Virus record (IMG/VR): IMGVR_UViG_2778261697_000001
Reading direction: 5' to 3' (one strand)
Length of the DNA: 10,610 nucleotides
DNA from: a virus
Lineage: Duplodnaviria > Heunggongvirae > Uroviricota > Caudoviricetes
In this document: positions 1 to 10,610 of the stretch, in pieces
Layout of the letters: each line of letters begins with the position of its first letter
How positions within the stretch are numbered: the first letter of the stretch is position 1
Translations under genes and position numbers: made by a program
The notes under the pieces: generated by a model
What the model saw: the letters and a program-made list of their open reading frames with translations, nothing else
Database searches by the model: none
What the model was told of the DNA's origin: nothing

Positions 1-132
1 GTCCATTTCCGCGCAGACGATGACGTCACTGCCCGGCTGTATGCGCGAGGTTACCGACTGCGGCCTGAGTTTTTTAAGTGACGTAAAATCGTGTTGAGGC
101 CAACGCCCATAATGCGGGCAGTTGCCCGGCAT
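1..132 (-). CDS. insB: IS1 InsB, 5' part only (continues beyond the window edge)
   Basis: Mirror image of 10479-10610. It reads [44 protein letters not shown] in the -1 frame relative to insA and is open to the window edge. Confidence 0.8.
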
Positions 133-326
133 CCAACGCCATTCATGGCCATATCAATGATTTTCTGGTGCGTACCGGGTTGAGAAGCGGTGTAAGTGAA
201 CTGCAGTTGCCATGTTTTACGGCAGTGAGAGCAGAGATAGCGCTGATGTCCGGCGGTGCTTTTGCCGTTACGCACCACCCCGTCAGTAGCTGAACAGGAG
301 GGACAGCTGATAGAAACAGAAGCCAC
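51..326 (-). CDS. insA: IS1 InsA (transposition inhibitor / N-terminal part of the InsAB' transposase)
   Basis: 91-aa [43 protein letters not shown]... with the characteristic Cys-rich zinc-finger start; identical to the ORF at 10285-10560. Confidence 0.95.
69..77 (-). promoter_or_regulatory. IS1 programmed -1 ribosomal frameshift motif (A6C slippery site) joining insA to insB'
   Basis: Plus strand reads GTTTTTTAA here, i.e. TTAAAAAAC on the coding strand near the 3' end of insA. That this motif drives InsAB' frameshifting is established IS1 biology. Confidence 0.7.
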
Positions 327-359
327 TGGAGCACCTCAAAAACACCATCATACACTAAA

Positions 360-692
360 TCAGTAAGTTGGCAGCATCACCGCTGGCATGAATTCATTTT
401 CAGTTCTGAATTTAATAATTATAGAGTCAGTAAAGTCCTTATCAATGGATTGTACGATACCTCTAACGGCGATTAATTTACCTTTTAACTGTTCATCGGT
501 AGCGACTTCATTTTCTTCATACTCTTTAAACAGCTGTCGAGCAGTAGTGTTGTAGATTTCTTTTTGCGGTGCCGCAGCTTCCGTATCGGATGAGTATGAA
601 GAATTAGAGCCTTTATCGTTATTGCCTGCAAAATATCCAATAATCACCAACCCGATGAAAATATATAAAATCCATTTTAATAATTTCTTCAT
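360..692 (-). CDS. Membrane-anchored OB-fold protein (tRNA_anti-like / BOF-like family), 3' end replaced by IS1 sequence
   Basis: N-terminal Lys-rich start followed by a hydrophobic helix (MKKLLKWILYIFIGLVIIGYFAG). C-terminal YEENEVATDEQLKGKLIAVRGIVQSI resembles the OB-fold tRNA_anti-like family, assigned from memory. The last 6 codons and the TGA stop (360-380) lie inside the IS1 terminal repeat, so the native C-terminus is missing. AT-rich, unlike the adjacent tail operon. Confidence 0.55.
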   Translation of the reverse strand: MKKLLKWILYIFIGLVIIGYFAGNNDKGSNSSYSSDTEAAAPQKEIYNTTARQLFKEYEENEVATDEQLKGKLIAVRGIVQSIDKDFTDSIIIKFRTENEFMPAVMLPTY

Positions 693-754
693 GTTATCAC
701 CTTAATGCTAATAATTTATATGGTTACAAATGGTAATGGCTACCACTACAAATT

Positions 755-2131
755 ATGGCATTACCAGTAAATATTACTACTGATAATAAATATGGGACTT
801 ATATGACGTGGAAAGACAGGCTTCAGGATGCGTCATTTCGCGGCGTACCGTTTAAAGTTGAAGAAGAAAGTGCGGGAACCGGTCGCCGTGTGGAAACACA
901 CGAATACCCGAACCGCGACAAGCCCTATACTGAAGATCTGGGAAAAGTCACTTTCCGCCCGTCCATCACGGCTTATGTGGTGGGAGATGACTGCTTTGAC
1001 CAGCGCGATCGCCTGATTGATGCGCTGAATAAACCCGGTCCCGGCACGCTTGTCCATCCGACATACGGTGAGCTGAAAGTCTGTGTTGACGGGGAAGTTC
1101 GGGTCAGCACATCGAAAAGTGAAGGGCGTATTGTCCGCTTTGACCTGAAGTTTGTCGAAGCGGGAGAACTCTCTTACCCCACATCAGGTGCGGCGACGGC
1201 GCAGACGCTGATGTCATCCTGTTTTGCACTGGATGACTGCATCAGTGGCAGCTTCAGCGGTTTCAGTATCGATGGCGTGGCGGATTTCGTGCAGAACGAC
1301 GTTATCGGTAATGCCGGCACAATGCTGGGGTATGTTTCTGATGCGATGAAAGTGGTGGATTCTGCTGTATCGGATGCCGCCAGGCTGTTGCAGGGAGATA
1401 TTTCGGTACTTCTGCCGCCGCCATCGTCAGGCAAAAATTTCGTTGAGCAGGTGCAGAAAATGTGGCGTACCGGGAAGCGCCTTTATGGTAACGCCAGCGA
1501 CCTGGTCACCATGATCAAAACGCTTTCCGGTGTCAGCCTCGGCAGCGATCTGCAACCGCGCGGTGTCTGGAAAACGGACAGTAAAACCACCGCCACGGCA
1601 ACGCAGCAGCGTAACGTGGTTGCCAGCACCCTTCGTACGACCGCAATCAGCGAAGCGGCGTATGCCGTCACCCGGCTGCCTGCACCAACAACTTCCGCAG
1701 TGATGCAGAATTCCGCAGTGGGGCAGTCAACAACCCCCGCGCAGAGCACCGGCTGGCCTTCCGTCACGCATCCGGCACTGAACAATGCACCGGCGGTGAA
1801 AAACACGGTTGACCTGCCAACGTGGGAAGAACTGACCGACATTCGCGACACACTGAATACGGCAATTGAGAAGGAGTTGTCCCGTACAACCAGTGATGCG
1901 CTGTTTCTGGCGCTGCGCCGGGTGAAAGCAGATCTGAATGCGGATATCAACACGCGCCTTGAACAGTCTGCACGGATCATTCAGCGCACACCGGATGAGG
2001 TTTTACCCGCGCTGGTGCTGGCGGCGACCTGGTTTGATAACGCGGCGCGTGACGCGGACATTATCCGGCGTAATGCCATTACGCATCCCGGCTTTGTGCC
2101 GGTGATCCCTCTGAAGGTGCCAGTGCAATGA
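755..2131 (+). CDS. Mu gpN-like DNA circularisation protein (tail/baseplate module)
   Basis: 458-aa ORF. The N-terminal WKDRLQDASFRGVPFKVEEESAGTGRRVETHEYPNRDKPYTEDLG block matches the DNA_circ_N-type domain of Mu N homologues as I recall it, followed by a Ser/Thr/Ala/Pro-rich linker. The first 16 codons are AT-rich with no Shine-Dalgarno sequence, so the real start may be the ATG at 803 (MTWKDRL...). The stop overlaps the next start (ATGA at 2128-2131). Confidence 0.75.
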   Translation: MALPVNITTDNKYGTYMTWKDRLQDASFRGVPFKVEEESAGTGRRVETHEYPNRDKPYTEDLGKVTFRPSITAYVVGDDCFDQRDRLIDALNKPGPGTLVHPTYGELKVCVDGEVRVSTSKSEGRIVRFDLKFVEAGELSYPTSGAATAQTLMSSCFALDDCISGSFSGFSIDGVADFVQNDVIGNAGTMLGYVSDAMKVVDSAVSDAARLLQGDISVLLPPPSSGKNFVEQVQKMWRTGKRLYGNASDLVTMIKTLSGVSLGSDLQPRGVWKTDSKTTATATQQRNVVASTLRTTAISEAAYAVTRLPAPTTSAVMQNSAVGQSTTPAQSTGWPSVTHPALNNAPAVKNTVDLPTWEELTDIRDTLNTAIEKELSRTTSDALFLALRRVKADLNADINTRLEQSARIIQRTPDEVLPALVLAATWFDNAARDADIIRRNAITHPGFVPVIPLKVPVQ

Positions 2132-3207
2132 ACGATAACGTCACGCTACGGGTAAATGGCCGGGAGTGGAATGGCTGGACATCGGTGCGCATCGGTGCCG
2201 GTATTGAACGGCTGGCGCGGGATTTCAGTGTGGAGATCACCCGCCAGTGGCCGGGAGATGAGGGTATCACCACGCTTCAGCCGCGCATTAAAAACGGTTC
2301 AAAAGTGGAAGTGCTGATTGGTGATGAGCTGGTGATCACCGGCTGGGTGGAGGCGACTCCCGTTCGTTACGATGCCCGTTCGATCAGCACCGGTATTGCC
2401 GGACGCAGTCTGACCGCTGACCTGATTGACTGTGCAGCCGAACCGACACAGTTTAACGGACGATCGCTGGTACAGATTGCGCAGGCGCTTGCAGCGCCTT
2501 TCGGCATTGAGGTGGTGAACAGCGGCGCGCCGTCGGGTGTTATTCCTGATGTCCAGCCTGATCACGGCGAAACGGTGATTGAGGTGATCAACAAAATACT
2601 CGGTCAGCAGCAGGCACTGGCTTACGACGACCCGCACGGCAGGCTGGTGATTGGCGGTATTGGCTCAACGCGGGCACATACCGCGCTGGTACTCGGGGAA
2701 AACATCCTTTCCTGCGATACGGAGAAGAGTATCCGGGAGCGGTTTTCAGTTTACCAGGTGGCGGGGCAGCGTGCCGGAAACGACGATGATTTCGGTGAGG
2801 CTACCACCACCGCGCTGCGGGCCCGCACAGAGGACGCATTTATTGCCCGTTACCGTCCGATGTATATCAGGCAGACAGGGCAGGCTACGGGGGCAGGCTG
2901 TATTGCCCGTGCTGACTTTGAAGCCCGACAACGGGCGGCACGGACGGATGAAACCACCTATGTGGTGCAGGGCTGGCGACAGGGTAACGGTACGCTGTGG
3001 CAGCCCAACCAGCGGGTGATTGTCTTCGATCCGGTCTGTGGTTTCGATAATACCGAACTGCTTGTTTCGGAAGTCACGTTTACTCAGGACCAGAACGGCA
3101 CCCTGACGGAAATCCGTGTCGGCCCGCCTGATGCTTATCTGCCTGAACCCGAAGCCCCCGGCGCGCGGAAAAAGAAAAAAGCCAGAGTACAGGAGGACCC
3201 GTTCTGA
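2128..3207 (+). CDS. Mu gpP / gp44-like baseplate hub protein (phage late control gene D family)
   Basis: 359-aa ORF in conserved Mu-like order between the gpN-like and gpV-like genes. Start is coupled to the upstream stop; AAGGTG lies upstream. GC-rich phage-type codon usage. Family assigned from position and general sequence character. Confidence 0.7.
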   Translation: MNDNVTLRVNGREWNGWTSVRIGAGIERLARDFSVEITRQWPGDEGITTLQPRIKNGSKVEVLIGDELVITGWVEATPVRYDARSISTGIAGRSLTADLIDCAAEPTQFNGRSLVQIAQALAAPFGIEVVNSGAPSGVIPDVQPDHGETVIEVINKILGQQQALAYDDPHGRLVIGGIGSTRAHTALVLGENILSCDTEKSIRERFSVYQVAGQRAGNDDDFGEATTTALRARTEDAFIARYRPMYIRQTGQATGAGCIARADFEARQRAARTDETTYVVQGWRQGNGTLWQPNQRVIVFDPVCGFDNTELLVSEVTFTQDQNGTLTEIRVGPPDAYLPEPEAPGARKKKKARVQEDPF

Positions 3208-3755
3208 TGAGGACGATTGAAGCCATGCAGCGACAACTCCTCGGCCTGATTGGGCGGGCCGTGGTGAAAAGCATCAGTGCCGCCACGAAATGTCAGACCG
3301 TGGATGTGTCCCTGATTGCCGGTGAACCCAAAGCCGGGGTTGAGCATCTTGAACCCTACGGTTTTACCGCAAGGGCAAACAGCGGTGCAGAAGCGGTGGT
3401 GTTGTTTCCGGATGGCGACCGTTCTCATGCGGTAGTTGTTACGGTGTCGGACCGGCGCTACCGCCTGAAAGGGCTGCAGACGGGTGAGGTGGCTGTCTAT
3501 GACGATCAGGGGCAGTCCGTGATGCTGACCCGGGAGGGGATCGTGGTGGACGGTGCAGGTAAAACGATCACGTTTCGCAATGCACCTGAAGCACGTTTTG
3601 AAATGGACCTTGAAGTGACCGGACAGGTGAAAGACCTGTGCGACTCCGGCGGCACCACCATGTCAGCGATGCGGCTTGCTTATAACGGGCATCGTCACAG
3701 AGAGAACGGTCAGGGCAGTAACACCGACAAACCTGATAAAGCGATGGAGGCATGA
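3207..3755 (+). CDS. Baseplate assembly protein V / Mu gp45-like spike
   Basis: 182-aa ORF with the pattern LEPYGFTARANSGAEAVVLFPDGDRSHAVVV typical of the gpV family (from memory). Strong Shine-Dalgarno AGGAGGA at 3191-3197. Start overlaps the upstream stop (TGATG). Confidence 0.75.
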   Translation: MRTIEAMQRQLLGLIGRAVVKSISAATKCQTVDVSLIAGEPKAGVEHLEPYGFTARANSGAEAVVLFPDGDRSHAVVVTVSDRRYRLKGLQTGEVAVYDDQGQSVMLTREGIVVDGAGKTITFRNAPEARFEMDLEVTGQVKDLCDSGGTTMSAMRLAYNGHRHRENGQGSNTDKPDKAMEA

Positions 3756-4180
3756 TGGAACTGTGGCTGACGGTGAACGGTAAACGCACCTGCGCCAGCG
3801 CACCGCTGGATCCGCTGACCCGCGCCGTGGTGATTTCCCTGTTCACCTGGCGGCGGGCGGAGCCTGATGACAATGCCGACGTCCCGATGGGATGGTGGGG
3901 GGATACCTGGCCTGCGGTACAGAATGACCGTTACGGCTCCCGACTGTGGCTGCTTCAGCGCAGCAAACTGACCAATCAGCTGGTGCAGACGGTAAGGGGG
4001 TATATCCGCGAATGCCTGCAATGGATGATTGATGACGGCGTGGTGTCCCGTATTGATCTGGATATCCGCCGCACCGGGATTAATGAACTGGGTAACAGTA
4101 TCACTCTCTGGCGTCGTGACGGACCGGTAATGATTTCTTTTGATGATCTGTGGAGTGCGATAACGCATGGCGGACAGTGA
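3752..4180 (+). CDS. Mu gp46-like baseplate protein
   Basis: 142-aa ORF of the size and position of Mu gp46. GGAGG at 3746-3750; the second ATG at 3755 has the better spacing and may be the true start. Overlaps the stop of the gp45-like gene. Confidence 0.7.
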   Translation: MMELWLTVNGKRTCASAPLDPLTRAVVISLFTWRRAEPDDNADVPMGWWGDTWPAVQNDRYGSRLWLLQRSKLTNQLVQTVRGYIRECLQWMIDDGVVSRIDLDIRRTGINELGNSITLWRRDGPVMISFDDLWSAITHGGQ

Positions 4181-5225
4181 ATTTCAGCGCCCGACGCTGG
4201 CAGAAAATATCAGTATGCTCCGTAACGATTTATTCGCCAGGCTGGACGTCAGCGACACGCTCCGGCGCATGGATGAAGACGTGCGGGCAAAGGTGTATGC
4301 GGCGGCGCTGCATACGGTTTACGGGTACATCGATTATCTGGCAATGAATATGCTGCCTGACCTGTGCGATGAGTCCTGGCTGGCGCGACATGCTGCGATG
4401 AAACGGTGTCCGCGCAAGGGGGCCACGGCTGCCAGCGGGTATATGCGCTGGGAAGGTGTCAGCGATGGCCTGAAGGTGACTGCCGGGAGCGTGATTCAGC
4501 GCGATGACCTGGTTCAGTACACGGCAACTGCCGATGCAACCAGCTCCGGTGGTGTCCTGCGTGTGCCGATCACTTGCTCAACTACAGGCGCGGTCGGTAA
4601 CGCTGACGACGGTACGGCATTAATCCTGGTCACGCCGGTGAATGGTCTGCCGTCTTCCGGTGTGGCTGACACCCTGACAGGCGGATTTGATACTGAAGAG
4701 CTGGAAACGTGGCGCGCCCGCGTCATTGAGCGGTATTACTGGACGCCTCAGGGCGGGGCTGACGGGGACTATGTCGTCTGGGCTAAAGAAGTGCCCGGCA
4801 TTACCCGCGCATGGACATACCGACACTGGATGGGAACGGGGACTGTCGGTGTGATGATTGCCAGCAGTGACCTGATTAATCCCATTCCGGAAGAGTCAAC
4901 GGAAACGGCGGCAAGACAACATATCGAGCCACTGGCCCCGGTGGCAGGCTCTGATTTGTATGTATTCAGGCCGGTGGCGCATAAAGTGGATTTTCATATC
5001 CGCGTGACGCCGGACACACCGGAAATACGGGCTGCCATCACCGCGGAGTTGCGTTCGTTCTTGCTGCGTGATGGTTATCCGCAGGGAGAACTGAAGGTGT
5101 CGCGTATCAGTGAGGCGATTTCCGGTGCGAACGGGGAATACAGCCATCAGTTGCTTGCACCGGCGGACAATATCTCCATTGCAAAAAATGAACTGGCGGT
5201 ACTGGGGACGATTTCATGGACGTGA
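4167..5225 (+). CDS. Baseplate J-like protein (Mu gp47-like)
   Basis: 352-aa ORF in the expected position after the gp46-like gene, overlapping it by 14 nt. Size and order fit the baseplate J family. Confidence 0.75.
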
Positions 5226-5800
5226 CAAACGATGATTACATCCGTCTGTTGTCGGCACTGTTGCCCCCCGGTCCGGCGTGGTCAGCCAGCGATCCGGCGA
5301 TTGCCGGTGCGGCACCGTCATTAACCCGCGTTCATCAGCGTGCGGATGCCCTGATGCGGGAGCTGGATCCGCGCACCACCACTGAACTGATAAACCGCTG
5401 GGAGCGTCTGTGCGGTCTGCCGGATGAATGTATTCCCGCAGGGACACAGACCCTTCGCCAGCGTCAGCAACGGCTGGATGCGAAGGTTAACCTGGCGGGC
5501 GGCATCAATGAGGATTTTTACCTTGCGCAGCTTGCTGCCCTGGGTAGACCAGATGCCACCATCACGCGATACGACAAAAGCACGTTCACCTGCTCATCGG
5601 CTTGTACTGACGAGGTGAATGCGCCGGAATGGCGGTATTACTGGCAGGTCAATATGCCAGCTGCCACCAACACCACCTGGATGACATGTGGCGATCCCTG
5701 CGATTCCGCACTGCGTATCTGGGGGGACACCGTTATCGAGTGCGTGCTTAACAAACTCTGCCCGTCGCATACCTACGTAATTTTTAAATATCCGGAGTAA
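5216..5800 (+). CDS. Mu gp48-like tail protein (YmfQ-like, DUF2313-type)
   Basis: 194-aa ORF overlapping the baseplate J gene by 10 nt. Length and position match gp48/YmfQ-type proteins that precede tail-fibre genes. Confidence 0.7.
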
Positions 5801-5803
5801 TCC

Positions 5804-6730
5804 ATGCATCGTATAGACACGAAAACCGCGCAAAAGGATAAGTTCGGCGCGGGTAAGAACGGTTTTACCCGTGGTAACCCCCAGACAGGCACGCCTGCCA
5901 CCGATCTGGATGATGACTACTTTGACATGTTGCAGGAAGAGCTCTGCAGCGTGGTGGAGGCATCCGGTGCCAGCCTGGAGAAGGGGCGGCATGACCAGCT
6001 GCTTACCGCGCTTCGTGCGCTGCTGTTAAGTCGCAAAAATCCGTTTGGCGATATCAAATCGGACGGCACGGTGAAAACGGCTCTTCAAAACCTTGGTTTG
6101 GGAGATACAAGCGGATACGTGGGACGCTGGGTGAATACCCGGGTTTTCACGTCATCAGGTACGTACACCCCGACGCCAGGAACAAAACGGATCAGGGTCA
6201 CAATAACGGGCGGCGGTGGCGGAGGGGGCGGCTGCAAGGCTATATCCAATAATGAAACGTTTTTCGGTGCTGGCGGCGGGGCAGGTGGGACAGTAATCAC
6301 CACGCTGATCCTGACGAAGGATAGTTATCCTGTCACTATCGGCGCAGGTGGGGCCGGCGGCGTTAGTGCGACGAACGGCTTCAAGGGCGGTGATAGCTCG
6401 TTCGGATCGGTAATAGCCCCTGGTGGTGAAGGTGGTGGAAAATCAGGAGTCACAAACACGAACGGTGGTAACGGCGGTGTGCCAAGTACTGGCGGTATCA
6501 ACATCATTGGTGGAAATGGAGGCGACGGTCAGTCCGGAAATATCGGCGTCAGCGGTGAAGGCGGAACATCGTACTGGGGGGGCGGTGGACGCGCAGGCGC
6601 TGGCGGTGGTGTTAGTGGTAAGGCATATGGTTCAGGTGGCGGTGGCGCATACGATGCCGGTTATAGCGGAACCAGTATGACAGGCGGGAAAGGTGCTGCT
6701 GGGGTTTGTATTATCGAGGAGTTTGCATAA
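5804..6730 (+). CDS. Tail fibre protein with conserved N-terminal anchor domain and glycine-rich C-terminal repeat domain
   Basis: 308-aa ORF. N-terminus [53 protein letters not shown] is the conserved prophage tail-fibre N-terminal domain (from memory). From about residue 140 the C-terminus is dominated by GGxGG repeats. GGAG Shine-Dalgarno 6 nt upstream. Confidence 0.8.
6190..6700 (+). repeat. Degenerate GGN-rich coding repeats (glycine-rich domain of the tail fibre)
   Basis: Direct reading shows runs such as ggcggcggtggcggagggggcggctgc and ggcgcaggtggggccggcggcgtt. The complementary strand yields artefactual Pro-rich ORFs. Confidence 0.6.
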
Positions 6731-7146
6731 TGAATGCGTCATATGCAGTTATTGAAAATGGGATGGTTGTGAATGTCATTGTCTGGGATGGCGAGGATGA
6801 ATTCACTGTGCCGGATAATCTGCAGCTCATTAATATTTCTGATATCAGTGAGCAGCCCGGAATTGGCTGGGCGTATTCAGACGGGGTATTTACTGCGCCG
6901 CTCCCTCCGGAACGTTCTCATGATGAACTGGTAGCTGACGCTGAACAGAAAAAACAGTCGCTGATAGACGCAGCAATGGCCAATATCAGCGTGATTCAGT
7001 TAAAGCTGCAGGCCGGGCGCAAACTGACGCAAGAAGAAACTACCCGACTTAACGTTGTGCTGGATTATATCGAGGCTGTGACGGCAACAGATACCAGCAT
7101 TGCACCGGATATTGAGTGGCCGGATGAACCGTGCTTCGCTGAATAA
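6730..7146 (+). CDS. Tail fibre assembly protein (Tfa chaperone)
   Basis: The C-terminus TATDTSIAPDIEWPDEPCFAE matches the conserved Tfa C-terminal motif (lambda Tfa ends ...TSTAPDIEWP...). ATG at 6730 overlaps the tail-fibre stop and has GAGGAG 8 nt upstream. The ORF track start at 6706 is probably an upstream extension. Confidence 0.8.
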   Translation: MNASYAVIENGMVVNVIVWDGEDEFTVPDNLQLINISDISEQPGIGWAYSDGVFTAPLPPERSHDELVADAEQKKQSLIDAAMANISVIQLKLQAGRKLTQEETTRLNVVLDYIEAVTATDTSIAPDIEWPDEPCFAE

Positions 7147-7223
7147 AATCTGTTGAGGAGAAGCGGTTTAATTGTAACTCAATTCTTTTTGTGTAATAAA
7201 AGTAGGACAAAACTGTGACACAT

Positions 7224-7251
7224 AAAGCCTCGCAATGGTTTGCAAGGCTTT
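7224..7251. terminator. Candidate bidirectional intrinsic terminator between convergent tfa and acyltransferase genes
   Basis: AAAGCCTCGCAA-TGGT-TTGCAAGGCTTT: 12-bp arms with one mismatch and a 4-nt loop, with A/T tracts at both ends so a U-run follows the stem in either direction. Confidence 0.35.
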
Positions 7252-7352
7252 GAACGCTTCTATATTGAGGATGTGACGCGGTTTCGTTTATTTCCATTCT
7301 ATATATTGATGTCGATTTTTATGAATATAGAGCATACGGATAAACTGCAGTG

Positions 7353-7389
7353 TGATTAGAGTCAAAGTAATAGTTGTTGACTCTAATCA
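7353..7389. repeat. Perfect AT-rich palindrome immediately 3' of the acyltransferase gene
   Basis: GATTAGAGTCAA (7354-7365) and TTGACTCTAATC (7377-7388) are exact reverse complements separated by 11 nt; the flanking t/a extends pairing to 13 bp. No U-tract follows on either strand. Confidence 0.4.
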
Positions 7390-7406
7390 TTGCAAAGTGA
7401 CTTTAC

Positions 7407-8474
7407 TTAATGAAATTTATCTCGGATGAATTGTTGCGATGGCTTTTCAATGAATATATATGACATATAGCTAATTGCCATTAATGTAAGCATGAATAAA
7501 ATGAATACCTTGGGGCTGTAAAAAAGATCGCGTCCATAGCCAATCTTGTCAGCTAAATAAACAACAATGATTTGCAAAGGAAAATGTAAAAGATAGGATG
7601 AATAACTGATATCACCCAACCATTCAATTTTTTCCCCAAAATCGTTTCGTATTGCGCTAATTGACACAAGGAAAAAGATTATGGAGGTAAATCCGAATAA
7701 GATAATTGAGAATATATCTGCTACTTGCAGGGTAAAGATAACTCCCCATGAGATCAATAGAAAAACACAAGCAAAAATAAAAAATAACTTTGCGCTAATA
7801 TTTTTTATGACAGCAATCGTAATTTTATAGGTCAGACCACCAATAAAGAAAGAGAATGCGCCGATCATTATGGGATTGTTAATTTTGAAAAAGTAGTACG
7901 ACAATGCAACTATTAAAATTGATATGAATGTTGTTTTTGATGTGAACTTGCATAATATAAAAAATATCATGTACATAAGTACTTCAATCGACACGGACCA
8001 TGTCGGGGCGTTGAAGGACCAACCTCGCTCAAATCCCCATGATTGAATCATCAATAAATTCAGAATGGCATGGTAAATGTCATTCATAGGATAAACAAAA
8101 AAATAATTATGACTTTTAAAGAAAATAATTTGTAATATTGCCACGACAGCAAATGTAAATATATAAAGTGGATATAATCTACTGACACGGTTAACTATAA
8201 AAGTTTTTGCTGAGGTTTTATTGCTGTGTATATTGTCAGCGTATAGATAAAAAAATATGAATCCAGAAATCATAAAAAACAATTCGACAGCATATAAACC
8301 GTAATGATAAAAGACGGAAAAAAAATCATAAAAAGGTTGGCGGTTTATGATTATGTCAGATGCAGCATTCTTTTTCATAAAAAAATGTTGCCAATGCCAT
8401 AACACAACGGAAAGTGCGGCAAATCCTCTCAGAACATCCAGGGTATATATTCTCTTCCCAAAAACATTCGTCAC
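7407..8474 (-). CDS. Acyltransferase family 3 integral membrane protein (OafA/Oac-like; putative O-antigen or surface polysaccharide acetyltransferase)
   Basis: 355-aa ORF with the hallmark N-terminal motif LDVLRGFAALSVVLWH and the RLYPLY motif, and many hydrophobic helices. GTG start with AAGAGG 7 nt upstream. Very AT-rich (about 22-33% GC on sampled lines, against about 57% in the tail genes). Confidence 0.85.
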   Translation of the reverse strand: MTNVFGKRIYTLDVLRGFAALSVVLWHWQHFFMKKNAASDIIINRQPFYDFFSVFYHYGLYAVELFFMISGFIFFYLYADNIHSNKTSAKTFIVNRVSRLYPLYIFTFAVVAILQIIFFKSHNYFFVYPMNDIYHAILNLLMIQSWGFERGWSFNAPTWSVSIEVLMYMIFFILCKFTSKTTFISILIVALSYYFFKINNPIMIGAFSFFIGGLTYKITIAVIKNISAKLFFIFACVFLLISWGVIFTLQVADIFSIILFGFTSIIFFLVSISAIRNDFGEKIEWLGDISYSSYLLHFPLQIIVVYLADKIGYGRDLFYSPKVFILFMLTLMAISYMSYIFIEKPSQQFIRDKFH

Positions 8475-8970
8475 AACGAACCTCTTTTAATAAAGTCAAG
8501 TGATAATGAAAGATAAATATTGTAAACGAAAAAATACTGGACTGGAACATATATCTCTGCCTGTAATTTAACCAAGATAATTTTACTAACGCAGTCATAA
8601 TTCGTTCATGTATACCAGATGAAAGTACATGTTCTATGAAATAGGGTTTTGCCTAGAGTTTGAAGGTTTTTAACGATTATACCTGTTTAATCGACTCCCC
8701 ATGTTTTTTGACATTATCCACCGCACACGATACTGGATGCCAGGTAAACTGATTTGCTGGCATAAAGTCACTGAGAATTTTTTACCAACAATATCTTGCC
8801 ACATCTTTTCCCGTACAGTTTCGGCAATAGAATCAGCGGGCAGCGGTCATCAATATTCACCAGACATTGATCTGCCGCACTATCTGACCGGTGTCCTGCT
8901 GAGAATACTAATTTCTTTTTTTTGCAAGTGCTGTCCAATCATGATTGGGGGGGGCTGGCGGAGTTGAAAA

Positions 8971-9002
8971 CGCAGACACGTTGTATGCAATAACGTGCTG
9001 CG
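8971..9002 (-). terminator. Stem-loop A, 24 nt downstream of the GIY-YIG stop; candidate intrinsic terminator and copy 1 of a hairpin repeat
   Basis: GCAG-a-CACGTT-[gtatgcaat]-AACGTG-CTGC with a flanking C-G pair. On the minus strand it is followed by GTTTTCAACTCC. Confidence 0.4.
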
Positions 9003-9025
9003 GTTTAATCTTATCAATTGAATAC

Positions 9026-9895
<870 letters not shown>

Positions 9896-9990
9896 CTAAC
9901 CCTTTGAATTTACATAGCGCAAAAAGATACCTTTCCTCATAATGTGAGCTAATTTTATGTTTCGTTTGATGATCGGGTCGGTCTCGAAAC

Positions 9991-10024
9991 CCGTAGCCAC
10001 GTCGTATGCAAGAACGTGCTACGG
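9991..10024 (-). repeat. Stem-loop B, copy 2 of the hairpin repeat, upstream of the GIY-YIG gene
   Basis: GTAG-c-CACGT-[cgtatgcaaga]-ACGTG-CTAC with two flanking C-G pairs. Homologous to stem-loop A; the outer stem carries a compensatory C-G to T-A change. Confidence 0.4.
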
Positions 10025-10284
10025 TTAGCTGGTGAAATGTCGATAGTGCGAGTGTTGAATAATTTCTAGCCGTTATTGATTTTACGTATTTTTGTATGAG
10101 ATGATTTGCATCTCCTGCCACCGACCATCTATGACTATACGTCACCATTTCTAGGGCTGCTATGTGCCAAGAGCGGTAATTGACAGAGAGCAGCCCTATC
10201 TCAGTGGCTTTATTTTTTTAGAGATTGCAGGTGATGCTGCCAACTTACTGATTTAGTGTATGATGGTGTTTTTGAGGTGCTCCA

Positions 10285-10560
10285 GTGGCTTCTGTTTCTA
10301 TCAGCTGTCCCTCCTGTTCAGCTACTGACGGGGTGGTGCGTAACGGCAAAAGCACCGCCGGACATCAGCGCTATCTCTGCTCTCACTGCCGTAAAACATG
10401 GCAACTGCAGTTCACTTACACCGCTTCTCAACCCGGTACGCACCAGAAAATCATTGATATGGCCATGAATGGCGTTGGATGCCGGGCAACTGCCCGCATT
10501 ATGGGCGTTGGCCTCAACACGATTTTACGTCACTTAAAAAACTCAGGCCGCAGTCGGTAA
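10285..10560 (+). CDS. insA: IS1 InsA
   Basis: 91-aa ORF identical to the copy at 51-326. Confidence 0.95.
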
Positions 10561-10610
10561 CCTCGCGCATACAGCCGGGCAGTGACGTCATCGTCTGCGC
10601 GGAAATGGAC
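10479..10610 (+). CDS. insB: IS1 InsB, 5' part only (continues beyond the window end)
   Basis: ATG at 10479 opens the frame [44 protein letters not shown], which matches the InsB N-terminus as I recall it and is open to the window edge. Confidence 0.8.
10534..10542 (+). promoter_or_regulatory. IS1 programmed -1 ribosomal frameshift motif (TTAAAAAAC)
   Basis: A6C slippery sequence near the 3' end of insA, in the overlap with the insB frame. Confidence 0.7.

Follow-up and report, generated by a model that had tools for sequence, protein, structure and literature searches.

The window, that is, the whole stretch of DNA analysed (10,610 nt), is a 100% match to the chromosomes of E. coli EJN001 and EBJ001. 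Eight ORFs on the + strand follow one another in Mu order by Pfam: gpN, gpP, gp45, gp46, gp47, gp48, fibre, and chaperone (Table 1). The first four carry DNA_circ_N (gpN, 3e-34), GpP/gp44, Mu_Gp45, and GP46 domains. The last four carry Baseplate_J (7e-54), Mu_Gp48, Gly_rich_2 (fibre), and Caudo_TAP (chaperone) domains. PHROGs assignments agree with Pfam. The junctions show coupling: stop and start codons meet as ATGA at 2128, TGATG at 3207, ATGATG at 3752-3757, and TAATG at 6730, and the others are a 14-nt overlap, a 10-nt overlap, and one 3-nt gap. The eight collinear tail genes are translationally coupled. The sequence-only reading of this DNA had recognised an orphan Mu-type baseplate and fibre module from a prophage, with the order N-P-45-46-47-48-fibre-chaperone and overlapping stop/start codons; its core is upheld.

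Table 1. Features of the window, with the evidence for each.
Feature	Position	Strand	Evidence
Inner 381 bp of left IS1 (IS1A)	1..381	-	IRL end abuts phage DNA at 359-381
Truncated OB-fold / Sie-like moron	360..692	-	Pfam tRNA_anti-like 1e-13; phrog_8545 'superinfection exclusion Sie-like' 7e-33
AT-rich divergent intergenic region of moron cassette	693..802	.	SfV homology resumes at 799
gpN-like 'DNA circularisation' / baseplate hub protein, 442 aa	803..2131	+	PF07157; 435/442 identical to SfV orf15
gpP-like baseplate hub protein, 359 aa	2128..3207	+	GpP domains; 356/359 identical to SfV orf16
gp45-like baseplate spike / assembly protein V, 182 aa	3207..3755	+	PF06890; 181/182 identical to SfV orf17
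gp46-like wedge protein, 141 aa	3755..4180	+	PF07409; 141/141 identical to SfV orf18
gp47 / Baseplate_J wedge protein, 352 aa	4167..5225	+	PF04865 7e-54; 347/352 identical to SfV orf19
gp48 / YmfQ wedge protein, 194 aa	5216..5800	+	PF10076; 192/194 identical to SfV orf20
Mosaic tail fibre, 308 aa	5804..6730	+	SfV-type N-terminal attachment domain to ~6105
Tail-fibre assembly chaperone, 138 aa	6730..7146	+	PF02413 2e-21
Acyltransferase_3 moron, 31% GC	7407..8474	-	PF01757; phrog_3333 O-acetyltransferase 2e-40
GIY-YIG nuclease PD-T4-3/CMoRE (type IV restriction), apparently intact	9026..9850	-	PADLOC PDLC04031 1e-139; PDB 9U75 8e-172
Inner 381 bp of right IS1 (IS1A)	10230..10610	+	Joins phage DNA at 10229/10230

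The reading frames are intact, as had been noticed. Each of the six baseplate proteins is as long as its SfV counterpart, 97-100% identical to it, and free of stops. In exact-sequence look-ups, the gpN-like protein is present on 47 contigs and the chaperone on 371. The conserved start of gpN is ATG 803 (442 aa, the PGAP call) and not ATG 755; SfV homology begins at 799. The missing ribosome-binding site pointed out earlier concerns the non-conserved ATG 755; a weak GGGA precedes ATG 803, where SfV has GGAG. For the chaperone, the start is ATG 6730 rather than TTG 6706.

The fibre is a mosaic. Downstream of ~6105 the SfV-type attachment domain gives way to a different, glycine-rich C-terminal domain, and the ORF is continuous. 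Its exact sequence is found on ~100 contigs and every member of its cluster has 308 aa; together with end-to-end PHROG matches, the look-up indicates an intact gene. When it was compared by tblastn with phage genomes, only the N-terminal third showed high identity and no full-length phage counterpart was found. The fibre is mis-annotated by PGAP and NCBI.

The phage-derived DNA is not confined to the operon (755-7146) but spans 382-10229. It had been suggested that the operon begins abruptly, with an AT-rich divergent gene in the place of the tape-measure gene. The real left breakpoint is the IS1 end at 381/382, and it lies within that divergent gene, an OB-fold moron of 33% GC. In intact prophages this moron sits between the tape-measure (TMP) and gpN genes, and it is a genuine native moron of this phage lineage. 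Comparison with the prophage of strain a15 shows that 104 native residues (382-692) of a 148-aa protein remain, followed by 6 residues encoded by IS1.

Two accessory genes follow the chaperone on the opposite strand. The acyltransferase occupies the place that gtrABV has on the SfV map and is a candidate O-antigen acetylase. The second gene belongs, by profile and structure matches, to the PD-T4-3/CMoRE family: 255/256 profile positions are covered in PADLOC and 258 residues in PDB 9U75. PGAP places its start at 9799. Its placement as a GIY-YIG nuclease of PD-T4-3/CMoRE type also draws on PMC12923530, and the match to the solved CMoRE proteins is full-length. NCBIfam gave no match for the acyltransferase, OB-fold, fibre, or small ORF; two small unannotated ORFs had no match in PHROGs, Pfam, or PADLOC; and Rfam and tRNA scans of the window returned nothing. 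An invertase gene after the chaperone is indeed absent, as had been stated, but this is no sign of decay, since SfV-type phages naturally lack one and have O-antigen-modification or accessory genes at that position.

The same DNA is found within complete prophages. Five other strains carry complete SfV-like prophages integrated at thrW, from which 382-10229 differs at only 10 positions; for a15, these are 9 SNPs and 1 intergenic indel over 9848 nt. In a15 and EH09-18-41, the segment is embedded in a prophage with the order proA, thrW, int, cI/cro, Q, lysis, terminase, portal, capsid, sheath, tube, TMP, OB-fold, baseplate, fibre, tfa, acyltransferase, GIY-YIG, and SIR2. The intact prophage of EH09-18-41 (99.9% identical) abuts thrW. 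A tRNA scan near the right end of the a15 prophage found nothing.

In EJN001, the segment lies 21 kb downstream of thrW and adjoins rclCBA in K-12 backbone orientation. As the sequence-only reading had it, sheath, tube, tape-measure, and head genes are absent from the window, and they are also absent from up to 18 kb on either side of it in the source genome. The locus is a remnant of an SfV-like lambdoid prophage with a Mu-type tail and not a functional member, because the genes for integration (int), immunity, Q, lysis, the head, sheath, and tube, and the TMP are absent from the window, from 18 kb on each side and, as same-lineage copies, from the matches listed for EJN001. Cryptic-prophage remnants of this kind are ordinary.

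SfV, SfI, SfII, and SfIV are serotype-converting lambdoid myoviruses of Shigella flexneri that integrate at thrW. The window and SfV share 97.3% DNA identity over 5307 nt (799-6105), which covers orf15-orf20 and the N-terminus of the fibre. They also share gene order and the presence of accessory cell-surface genes after the chaperone. The differences are that the fibre C-terminus and the chaperone have been replaced; that acyltransferase, PD-T4-3, and SIR2 genes are found instead of gtrABV; that an OB-fold moron separates the TMP gene from that for gpN; and that EJN001 keeps only the distal quarter of the phage genome. SfI has thrW as its attachment site (PMC3636060), and the intact relatives of the window are likewise at proA-thrW. 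SfV-like phages are found in ~20% of E. coli genomes.

The likeness to Mu (N, P, 45, 46, 47, 48, S, U) holds for the tail protein families and their order, and each protein is annotated in the SfV record as 'similar to phage Mu'. It does not extend to the parent phage. In place of transposase A/B and a Mu-type c repressor, the intact relatives encode a tyrosine integrase, cI/cro, and Q, and they have a terminase and an HK97-type head. Neither the window nor SfV has an invertase; the G segment and Gin of Mu are missing. A transposable Mu-like prophage was rejected on these grounds; the parent is a non-transposable, lambdoid SfV-like phage whose head is of HK97 type and whose contractile tail is of Mu type. 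A tailocin or contractile injection system (R-pyocin-like, eCIS) was also rejected, as sheath, tube, and tape measure are not at the locus. The EJN001 chromosome has a single SfV-type tail module, and the matches listed include no sheath-to-TMP segment of a15 type.

A close precedent is e14 of E. coli K-12, a defective prophage related to SfV and SfI (PMC3636060). Of its head and tail genes almost none is left apart from fragments of aaaE, beeE, and jayE, but gp48/YmfQ, the fibre StfP, and the chaperone TfaP persist, with the type IV restriction gene mcrA after them. Positions 4438-6105 of the window are 95.7% identical to e14. While e14 is located at icd, keeps int, xis, and repressor, and lost its middle by an internal deletion, the EJN001 remnant is bounded by IS1 and lacks int, regulators, and invertase. 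Moreover, gp47 (jayE) is pseudogenised in e14 and a Pin-invertible fibre segment is present, whereas EJN001 has the whole of gpN-gp48 intact.

Both ends of the remnant are IS1 copies. Each is a full copy of 768 bp extending past the window, and the two are 100% identical and mutually inverted. A thrW-linked island, with galactan, RpiB, and hsd genes and with LacI on the IS1 side, lies outside the left copy and rclC outside the right one. At the right, only the last 20 nt of the SIR2 gene known from intact prophages are left. No target duplication was found in any pairing, be it that of simple insertion, composite transposition, or inversion by recombination or replicative transposition, and the outer flanks, TGGGAGAGG and CAGACAGTG, have no k-mer of 6 nt or more in common within 20 nt. 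The outer-left junction is shared with ESBL_DR28, which bears the island and in which island DNA continues past the IS1; thus, only the inner flank changed in EJN001. The IS1 copies at this junction differ by 16 nt, spread over positions 231-687, and that of EJN001 is uniformly IS1A. Because of this difference, the IS1 at the shared junction may have been converted or replaced.

IS1-promoted adjacent deletion and recombination between IS1 copies are established processes. The locus has the expected features: an IS1 at each breakpoint, one flank conserved with other strains, the other flank novel, and no duplication. It differs in that the process is inferred from its end product alone, with no intermediates seen, and this applies to the order of the events as well. 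In the EJN001/EBJ001 lineage, an SfV-like temperate phage would formerly have occupied the thrW region as a prophage. Both of its ends would then have been lost in two deletions associated with IS1. These would have come about either through intramolecular transposition of IS1 (adjacent deletion) or through IS1 copies recombining with each other as IS1A recently expanded. On the left, everything from int up to and including the tape-measure gene would have gone, together with one third of the OB-fold moron at its 3' end; on the right, the defence gene SIR2, attR, and the chromosome as far as rclC. The survivors are the distal 9.8 kb, i.e., the truncated Sie-like gene, the complete gpN-to-chaperone operon, the acyltransferase gene, and the PD-T4-3/CMoRE gene. 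We consider this history of an SfV-like prophage trimmed by two IS1-associated deletions very probable.

The remnant is unable to build a tail because sheath, tube, and tape measure are missing. With Q and the Q-dependent late promoter lost, the eight-gene operon is probably silent. A promoter consensus scan gave 14 sites against 14.6 expected, and terminator counts likewise equalled the shuffled expectation; neither scan bears on expression.

Could the remnant nevertheless be kept by selection? The accessory genes (PD-T4-3/CMoRE, acyltransferase) may be what is maintained, with the tail hitch-hiking, or the baseplate-fibre cassette may serve the host, e.g., as a recombination reservoir for SfV-like phages that enter the cell. 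PD-T4-3, the acyltransferase, and eight of eight tail ORFs are intact, and e14 also keeps a type IV restriction gene beside a tail remnant. Yet just 10 differences separate it from intact prophages and decay has had no time to set in, so that intact frames say nothing on selection. Furthermore, SIR2 was lost and the Sie-like gene truncated in the same events, and the arrangement is known from two near-identical isolates only. Maintenance is therefore unlikely: the tail genes are intact since the deletion is very recent, not since they are maintained. 'Decaying prophage remnant', the earlier description, is right as to remnant, but decaying is overstated; the truncation is recent and the genes are without mutational decay. 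A related and quite unlikely proposal is that the IS1-bounded remnant is a retained accessory cassette, whose inverted IS1 ends could mobilise PD-T4-3/CMoRE and the O-antigen acyltransferase, and whose fibre and chaperone could be rescued into incoming SfV-like phages. If so, the rescued pair would alter the host range of those phages.

IS1 composite transposons such as Tn9 and Tn1681 exist, and here two identical inverted copies, with IRL ends inward, bracket 9.8 kb that includes a defence gene. On that view the unit would have captured a tail end and defence genes and arrived as a whole. Against this, no 9-bp duplication lies outside the two copies, the unit is known at one locus only in two near-identical strains, and it is in native orientation in the thrW region, the normal home of the intact prophage. 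In addition, the left junction is already occupied by IS1 in a strain without the remnant. Arrival as a composite transposon is very doubtful.

The sequence-only reading had named one finding that would overturn it: a prophage rearranged rather than deleted. In that case IS1-mediated inversion or transposition would have carried the half with the head, sheath, tube, and tape-measure genes to another place in the chromosome, with its full set persisting. Identical inverted IS1 copies are a geometry that inversions can yield, and EJN001 has ~31 matches to the window, mostly IS1. However, the flanks lack inverted or exchanged 9-bp duplications, and thrW and rclC keep their orientation in the backbone. 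Among the matches listed for EJN001 and EBJ001, none was found for the a15-type head module, the sheath-to-TMP segment, the TMP-3'/OB-fold junction, or SIR2. Absence was judged from ranked match lists, in which a same-lineage copy of ~100% identity would rank first; it holds for such copies, and diverged (<97%) or fragmentary head or sheath copies from another phage may exist. Because these segments were not found elsewhere and the baseplate DNA is at only one place in EJN001, the remainder appears to have been lost by deletion and not by inversion. The remnant reading thus withstood this test, and rearrangement is extremely unlikely. Mis-joining of contigs at IS1 repeats, of which there are ~30 identical 768-bp copies per genome (a classic cause of misassembly), is hardly credible, as the structure is identical in two separately deposited complete genomes and a mis-join would relocate the remaining prophage, which is absent among the matches listed, rather than remove it.

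Taken by its sequence, the locus is in all likelihood the tail-tip end of a common E. coli SfV-family prophage that very recently lost both sides via IS1. The significance beyond annotation is small. It is a clean, datable case of a prophage cut down by IS1 expansion until accessory genes, defence genes, and a structural module without a promoter are left, and it shows that intact ORFs in a remnant are not evidence of domestication when the deletion is only ~10 substitutions old.

The window matches the E. coli EJN001 chromosome at 100% (929125-939734), and the same holds for EBJ001. Eight collinear plus-strand ORFs were called between 755 and 7146. In order, their Pfam matches are DNA_circ_N (Mu gpN), GpP/gp44 hub domains, Phage_Mu_Gp45, GP46, Baseplate_J (gp47), Phage_Mu_Gp48, a Gly_rich_2 tail fibre, and a Caudo_TAP fibre chaperone (E-values 8e-15 to 7e-54), and PHROGs are concordant. 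The gene junctions are ATGA (2128), TGATG (3207), ATGATG (3752-3757), 14-nt and 10-nt overlaps, a 3-nt gap, and TAATG (6730). The module in Mu order with overlapping stop and start codons that the sequence-only reading had described is thus borne out, and such an arrangement is far beyond chance.

Shigella phages SfV, SfI, SfII, and SfIV match positions 799-6105 with 97.3% identity. At least 80% of the SfV-type baseplate DNA is found in 1067 of 5426 complete E. coli genomes; this phage family is common in E. coli. The segment 382-10229 is 99.9% identical to one in five E. coli chromosomes (a15, PBS4, MY732, 36C_1_fosA3, and EH09-18-41), and in a15 and EH09-18-41, the two of the five whose context was examined, a complete prophage surrounds it. 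The order in EH09-18-41 is proA, tRNA-Thr (thrW), int, xis-like, cI/cro, Q, holin/endolysin/spanin, terminase, portal, protease, capsid, connectors, sheath, tube, assembly protein, tape measure, OB-fold protein (minus strand), gpN through chaperone, and then, all on the minus strand, acyltransferase, GIY-YIG, and SIR2. SfI and its relatives integrate at thrW (PMC3636060).

Downstream of the EH09-18-41 prophage are a second integrative element and then paoDCBA-yagU-ykgJ. An integrase-bearing element in this tandem position at thrW is seen in both EH09-18-41 (region L005, 22238-38095) and a15 (region L002, 31291-45790), carrying TOPRIM/DUF927 primase-like, Ash-family, and P22-like ejection-protein genes. 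In EH09-18-41 an IS3-family element (L005 16026-17271) lies between the acyltransferase and GIY-YIG genes of the otherwise intact prophage, and PGAP calls the C-terminal part of the fibre frameshifted. Both represent decay that arose independently in this prophage lineage.

Four a15 segments were compared with complete E. coli genomes: the head module, sheath to tape measure with the OB-fold remainder, a 701-nt probe over the exact left breakpoint, and the SIR2 region. For all four, the same five intact-prophage strains rank first at 100%, and EJN001 and EBJ001 are not among the matches listed (for the breakpoint probe, the best 60 of 70 full-length matches, to 97.0% identity). The SIR2 gene is found in 14 genomes, all listed, and these two strains are not among them. 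EJN001 has SfV-type baseplate DNA in exactly one place, and thrW, the remnant, and rclCBA-rclR preserve the K-12 backbone orientation. Therefore, as judged from ranked match lists and setting aside divergent or partial copies derived from unrelated phages, the missing parts of this lineage are deleted and not relocated. The rest of the prophage, sought elsewhere as the possible product of an IS1-mediated inversion, was not found among the listed matches, and the orphan-module reading stands.

Features of the remnant (window positions unless a region is named; L001, EJN001 region; L002, a15 region)
Feature	Position	Strand	Match or note
IS1	1-381 and 10230-10610		
OB-fold (PF12869) gene, AT-rich, hydrophobic N-terminus	360-692; L002 17865-18311	-	PHROG annotated Sie-like superinfection exclusion
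Tail fibre, continuous 308-aa ORF	5804-6730 (L001 23804-24730)	+	
Acyltransferase_3 gene, 31% GC	7407-8474	-	PHROG O-acetyltransferase / O-antigen acetylase; position of SfV gtrABV
Small ORF, 88 aa	8701-8967	+	unannotated
GIY-YIG gene, full-length PD-T4-3/CMoRE type IV restriction enzyme	9026-9850	-	PADLOC 1e-139; PDB 9U75 8e-172
Small ORF, 95 aa	9861-10148	-	unannotated

In EJN001 the phage DNA is flanked by two full 768-bp IS1 copies, 100% identical and inverted with their IRL ends inward. The left copy cuts the OB-fold gene, which has 104 native and 6 IS1-encoded codons versus 148 in intact prophages; outside it, a LacI-family regulator closes a degraded, thrW-linked island with a galactan-utilisation cluster. 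At the right copy the final 20 nt alone of the SIR2 gene remain, and rclC begins 18 bp past it. The four IS1 flanks share no 9-mer or even 6-mer in direct or inverted orientation, which excludes the signatures of simple insertion, composite transposition with duplication, and inversion. ESBL_DR28 also carries an IS1 precisely at the outer-left junction (TGGGAGAGG/GGTAATGAC) and in the EJN001 orientation, but there more island DNA follows. The change in EJN001 is therefore confined to the inner flank of a resident IS1, as would be produced by an IS1-promoted adjacent deletion or IS1xIS1 recombination. The ESBL_DR28 copy likewise has no 9-bp target duplication, so its LacI-side junction is the scar of an older rearrangement within the thrW island. 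That copy, downstream of the LacI-family gene (region L008, 22729-23496), is a variant 97.9% identical to the EJN001 IS1. The four EJN001 copies examined (L001 17614-18381 and 28230-28997; L006, another EJN001 region, 2563-3330 and 19903-20670) are all 100% identical, and about 31 places in EJN001 match the window, mostly IS1; a recent IS1A expansion would fit this. One copy interrupts a C40 peptidase (yafL) gene.

Some features earlier taken as signs of decay are native to the phage lineage. The divergent AT-rich gene, thought to replace the tape-measure gene, is a moron that in intact prophages lies antisense between the tape measure and gpN genes. Therefore it does not mark the deletion, and late transcripts have to pass across it. 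In SfV the corresponding interval is just 45 nt long and contains a hairpin and T-run. The reported absence of a ribosome-binding site concerns ATG 755, which is non-conserved and within the moron cassette. The conserved gpN start is ATG 803 (MTWKDRLQDASF...), 4 nt after SfV homology resumes, and its site is weak, not absent (GGGA; GGAG in SfV). An invertase is indeed missing 3' of the chaperone, but SfV and the intact relatives also have none, so this is no sign of decay; a Pin-invertible segment is a feature of the e14 lineage.

The reading frames are intact, as had been noted. Over 9848 nt, the phage DNA differs from that of a15 by 9 SNPs and one intergenic 1-bp indel. Six of the seven SNPs in the eight tail genes are synonymous, and at the other, which is non-synonymous (gp46 codon 135), the window has the SfV allele. 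The six baseplate proteins have the same lengths as SfV orf15-20 (allowing for the annotated orf15 start), are 97-100% identical to them, and show no internal stops in this comparison. The intactness reflects a very young truncation and carries no information on selection. The fibre is a mosaic, SfV-type to 6105, beyond which the C-terminus and the chaperone are foreign. In the PGAP annotation it is divided between a 'StfP pseudogene' and a 'glycine-rich domain-containing protein', and NCBI gives the same protein the name 'carbohydrate kinase'. Both annotations are apparently wrong: PHROG fibre profiles cover it end to end, the exact sequence is on about 100 contigs, and every member of its 90% cluster is 308 aa. 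The split is an artefact of the mosaic structure.

In this phage family the structural genes belong to a long late transcript that starts at a promoter 5' of the lysis genes and requires Q antitermination, as is established for lambdoid phages. Q and the lysis genes are present in intact relatives, and their region is deleted in EJN001. The left IS1 transposase reads away from the remnant, and a promoter scan gave no signal above chance 5' of gpN. For these reasons the operon is most likely transcriptionally silent. Even if it were expressed, no tail or tailocin could be assembled since sheath, tube, and tape measure are missing.

The minus-strand acyltransferase and GIY-YIG genes presumably have their own promoters, as is usual for morons, and may still be functional. 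The acyltransferase, a candidate LPS-modifying moron, differs from that of a15 by one residue (E281K). The GIY-YIG gene is intact; PD-T4-3/CMoRE type IV restriction targets 5hmC/5ghmC DNA. In intact prophages it adjoins a 936-aa SIR2-family gene (ThsA-like SIR2 domain), the two forming a small defence cluster at the phage attR end, with the 95-aa ORF located between them. Neither small ORF has a match in Pfam, PHROG, PADLOC, or NCBIfam, and the sole indel versus a15 (at 8946) is inside the 88-aa ORF.

It is very improbable that the IS1-bounded cassette has been kept, or could be mobilised, for its defence and surface-modification genes and donates fibres to incoming SfV-like phages. Membership tests, in which flank duplications were sought, gave no evidence of a mobile composite transposon at the locus. 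The same tests reject a tailocin, for which sheath, tube, and tape measure are missing, and a transposable Mu-like prophage. Among functional phages, SfV, SfI, and SfII are the nearest relatives. As a remnant, the locus is most closely paralleled by e14 of K-12, an SfV/SfI-related cryptic prophage (PMC3636060), which retains jayE (gp47 pseudogene), ymfQ (gp48), stfP, tfaP, and, at its end, mcrA, a type IV restriction gene. The locus is a previously undescribed example of a familiar type, the insertion-sequence-trimmed cryptic prophage.
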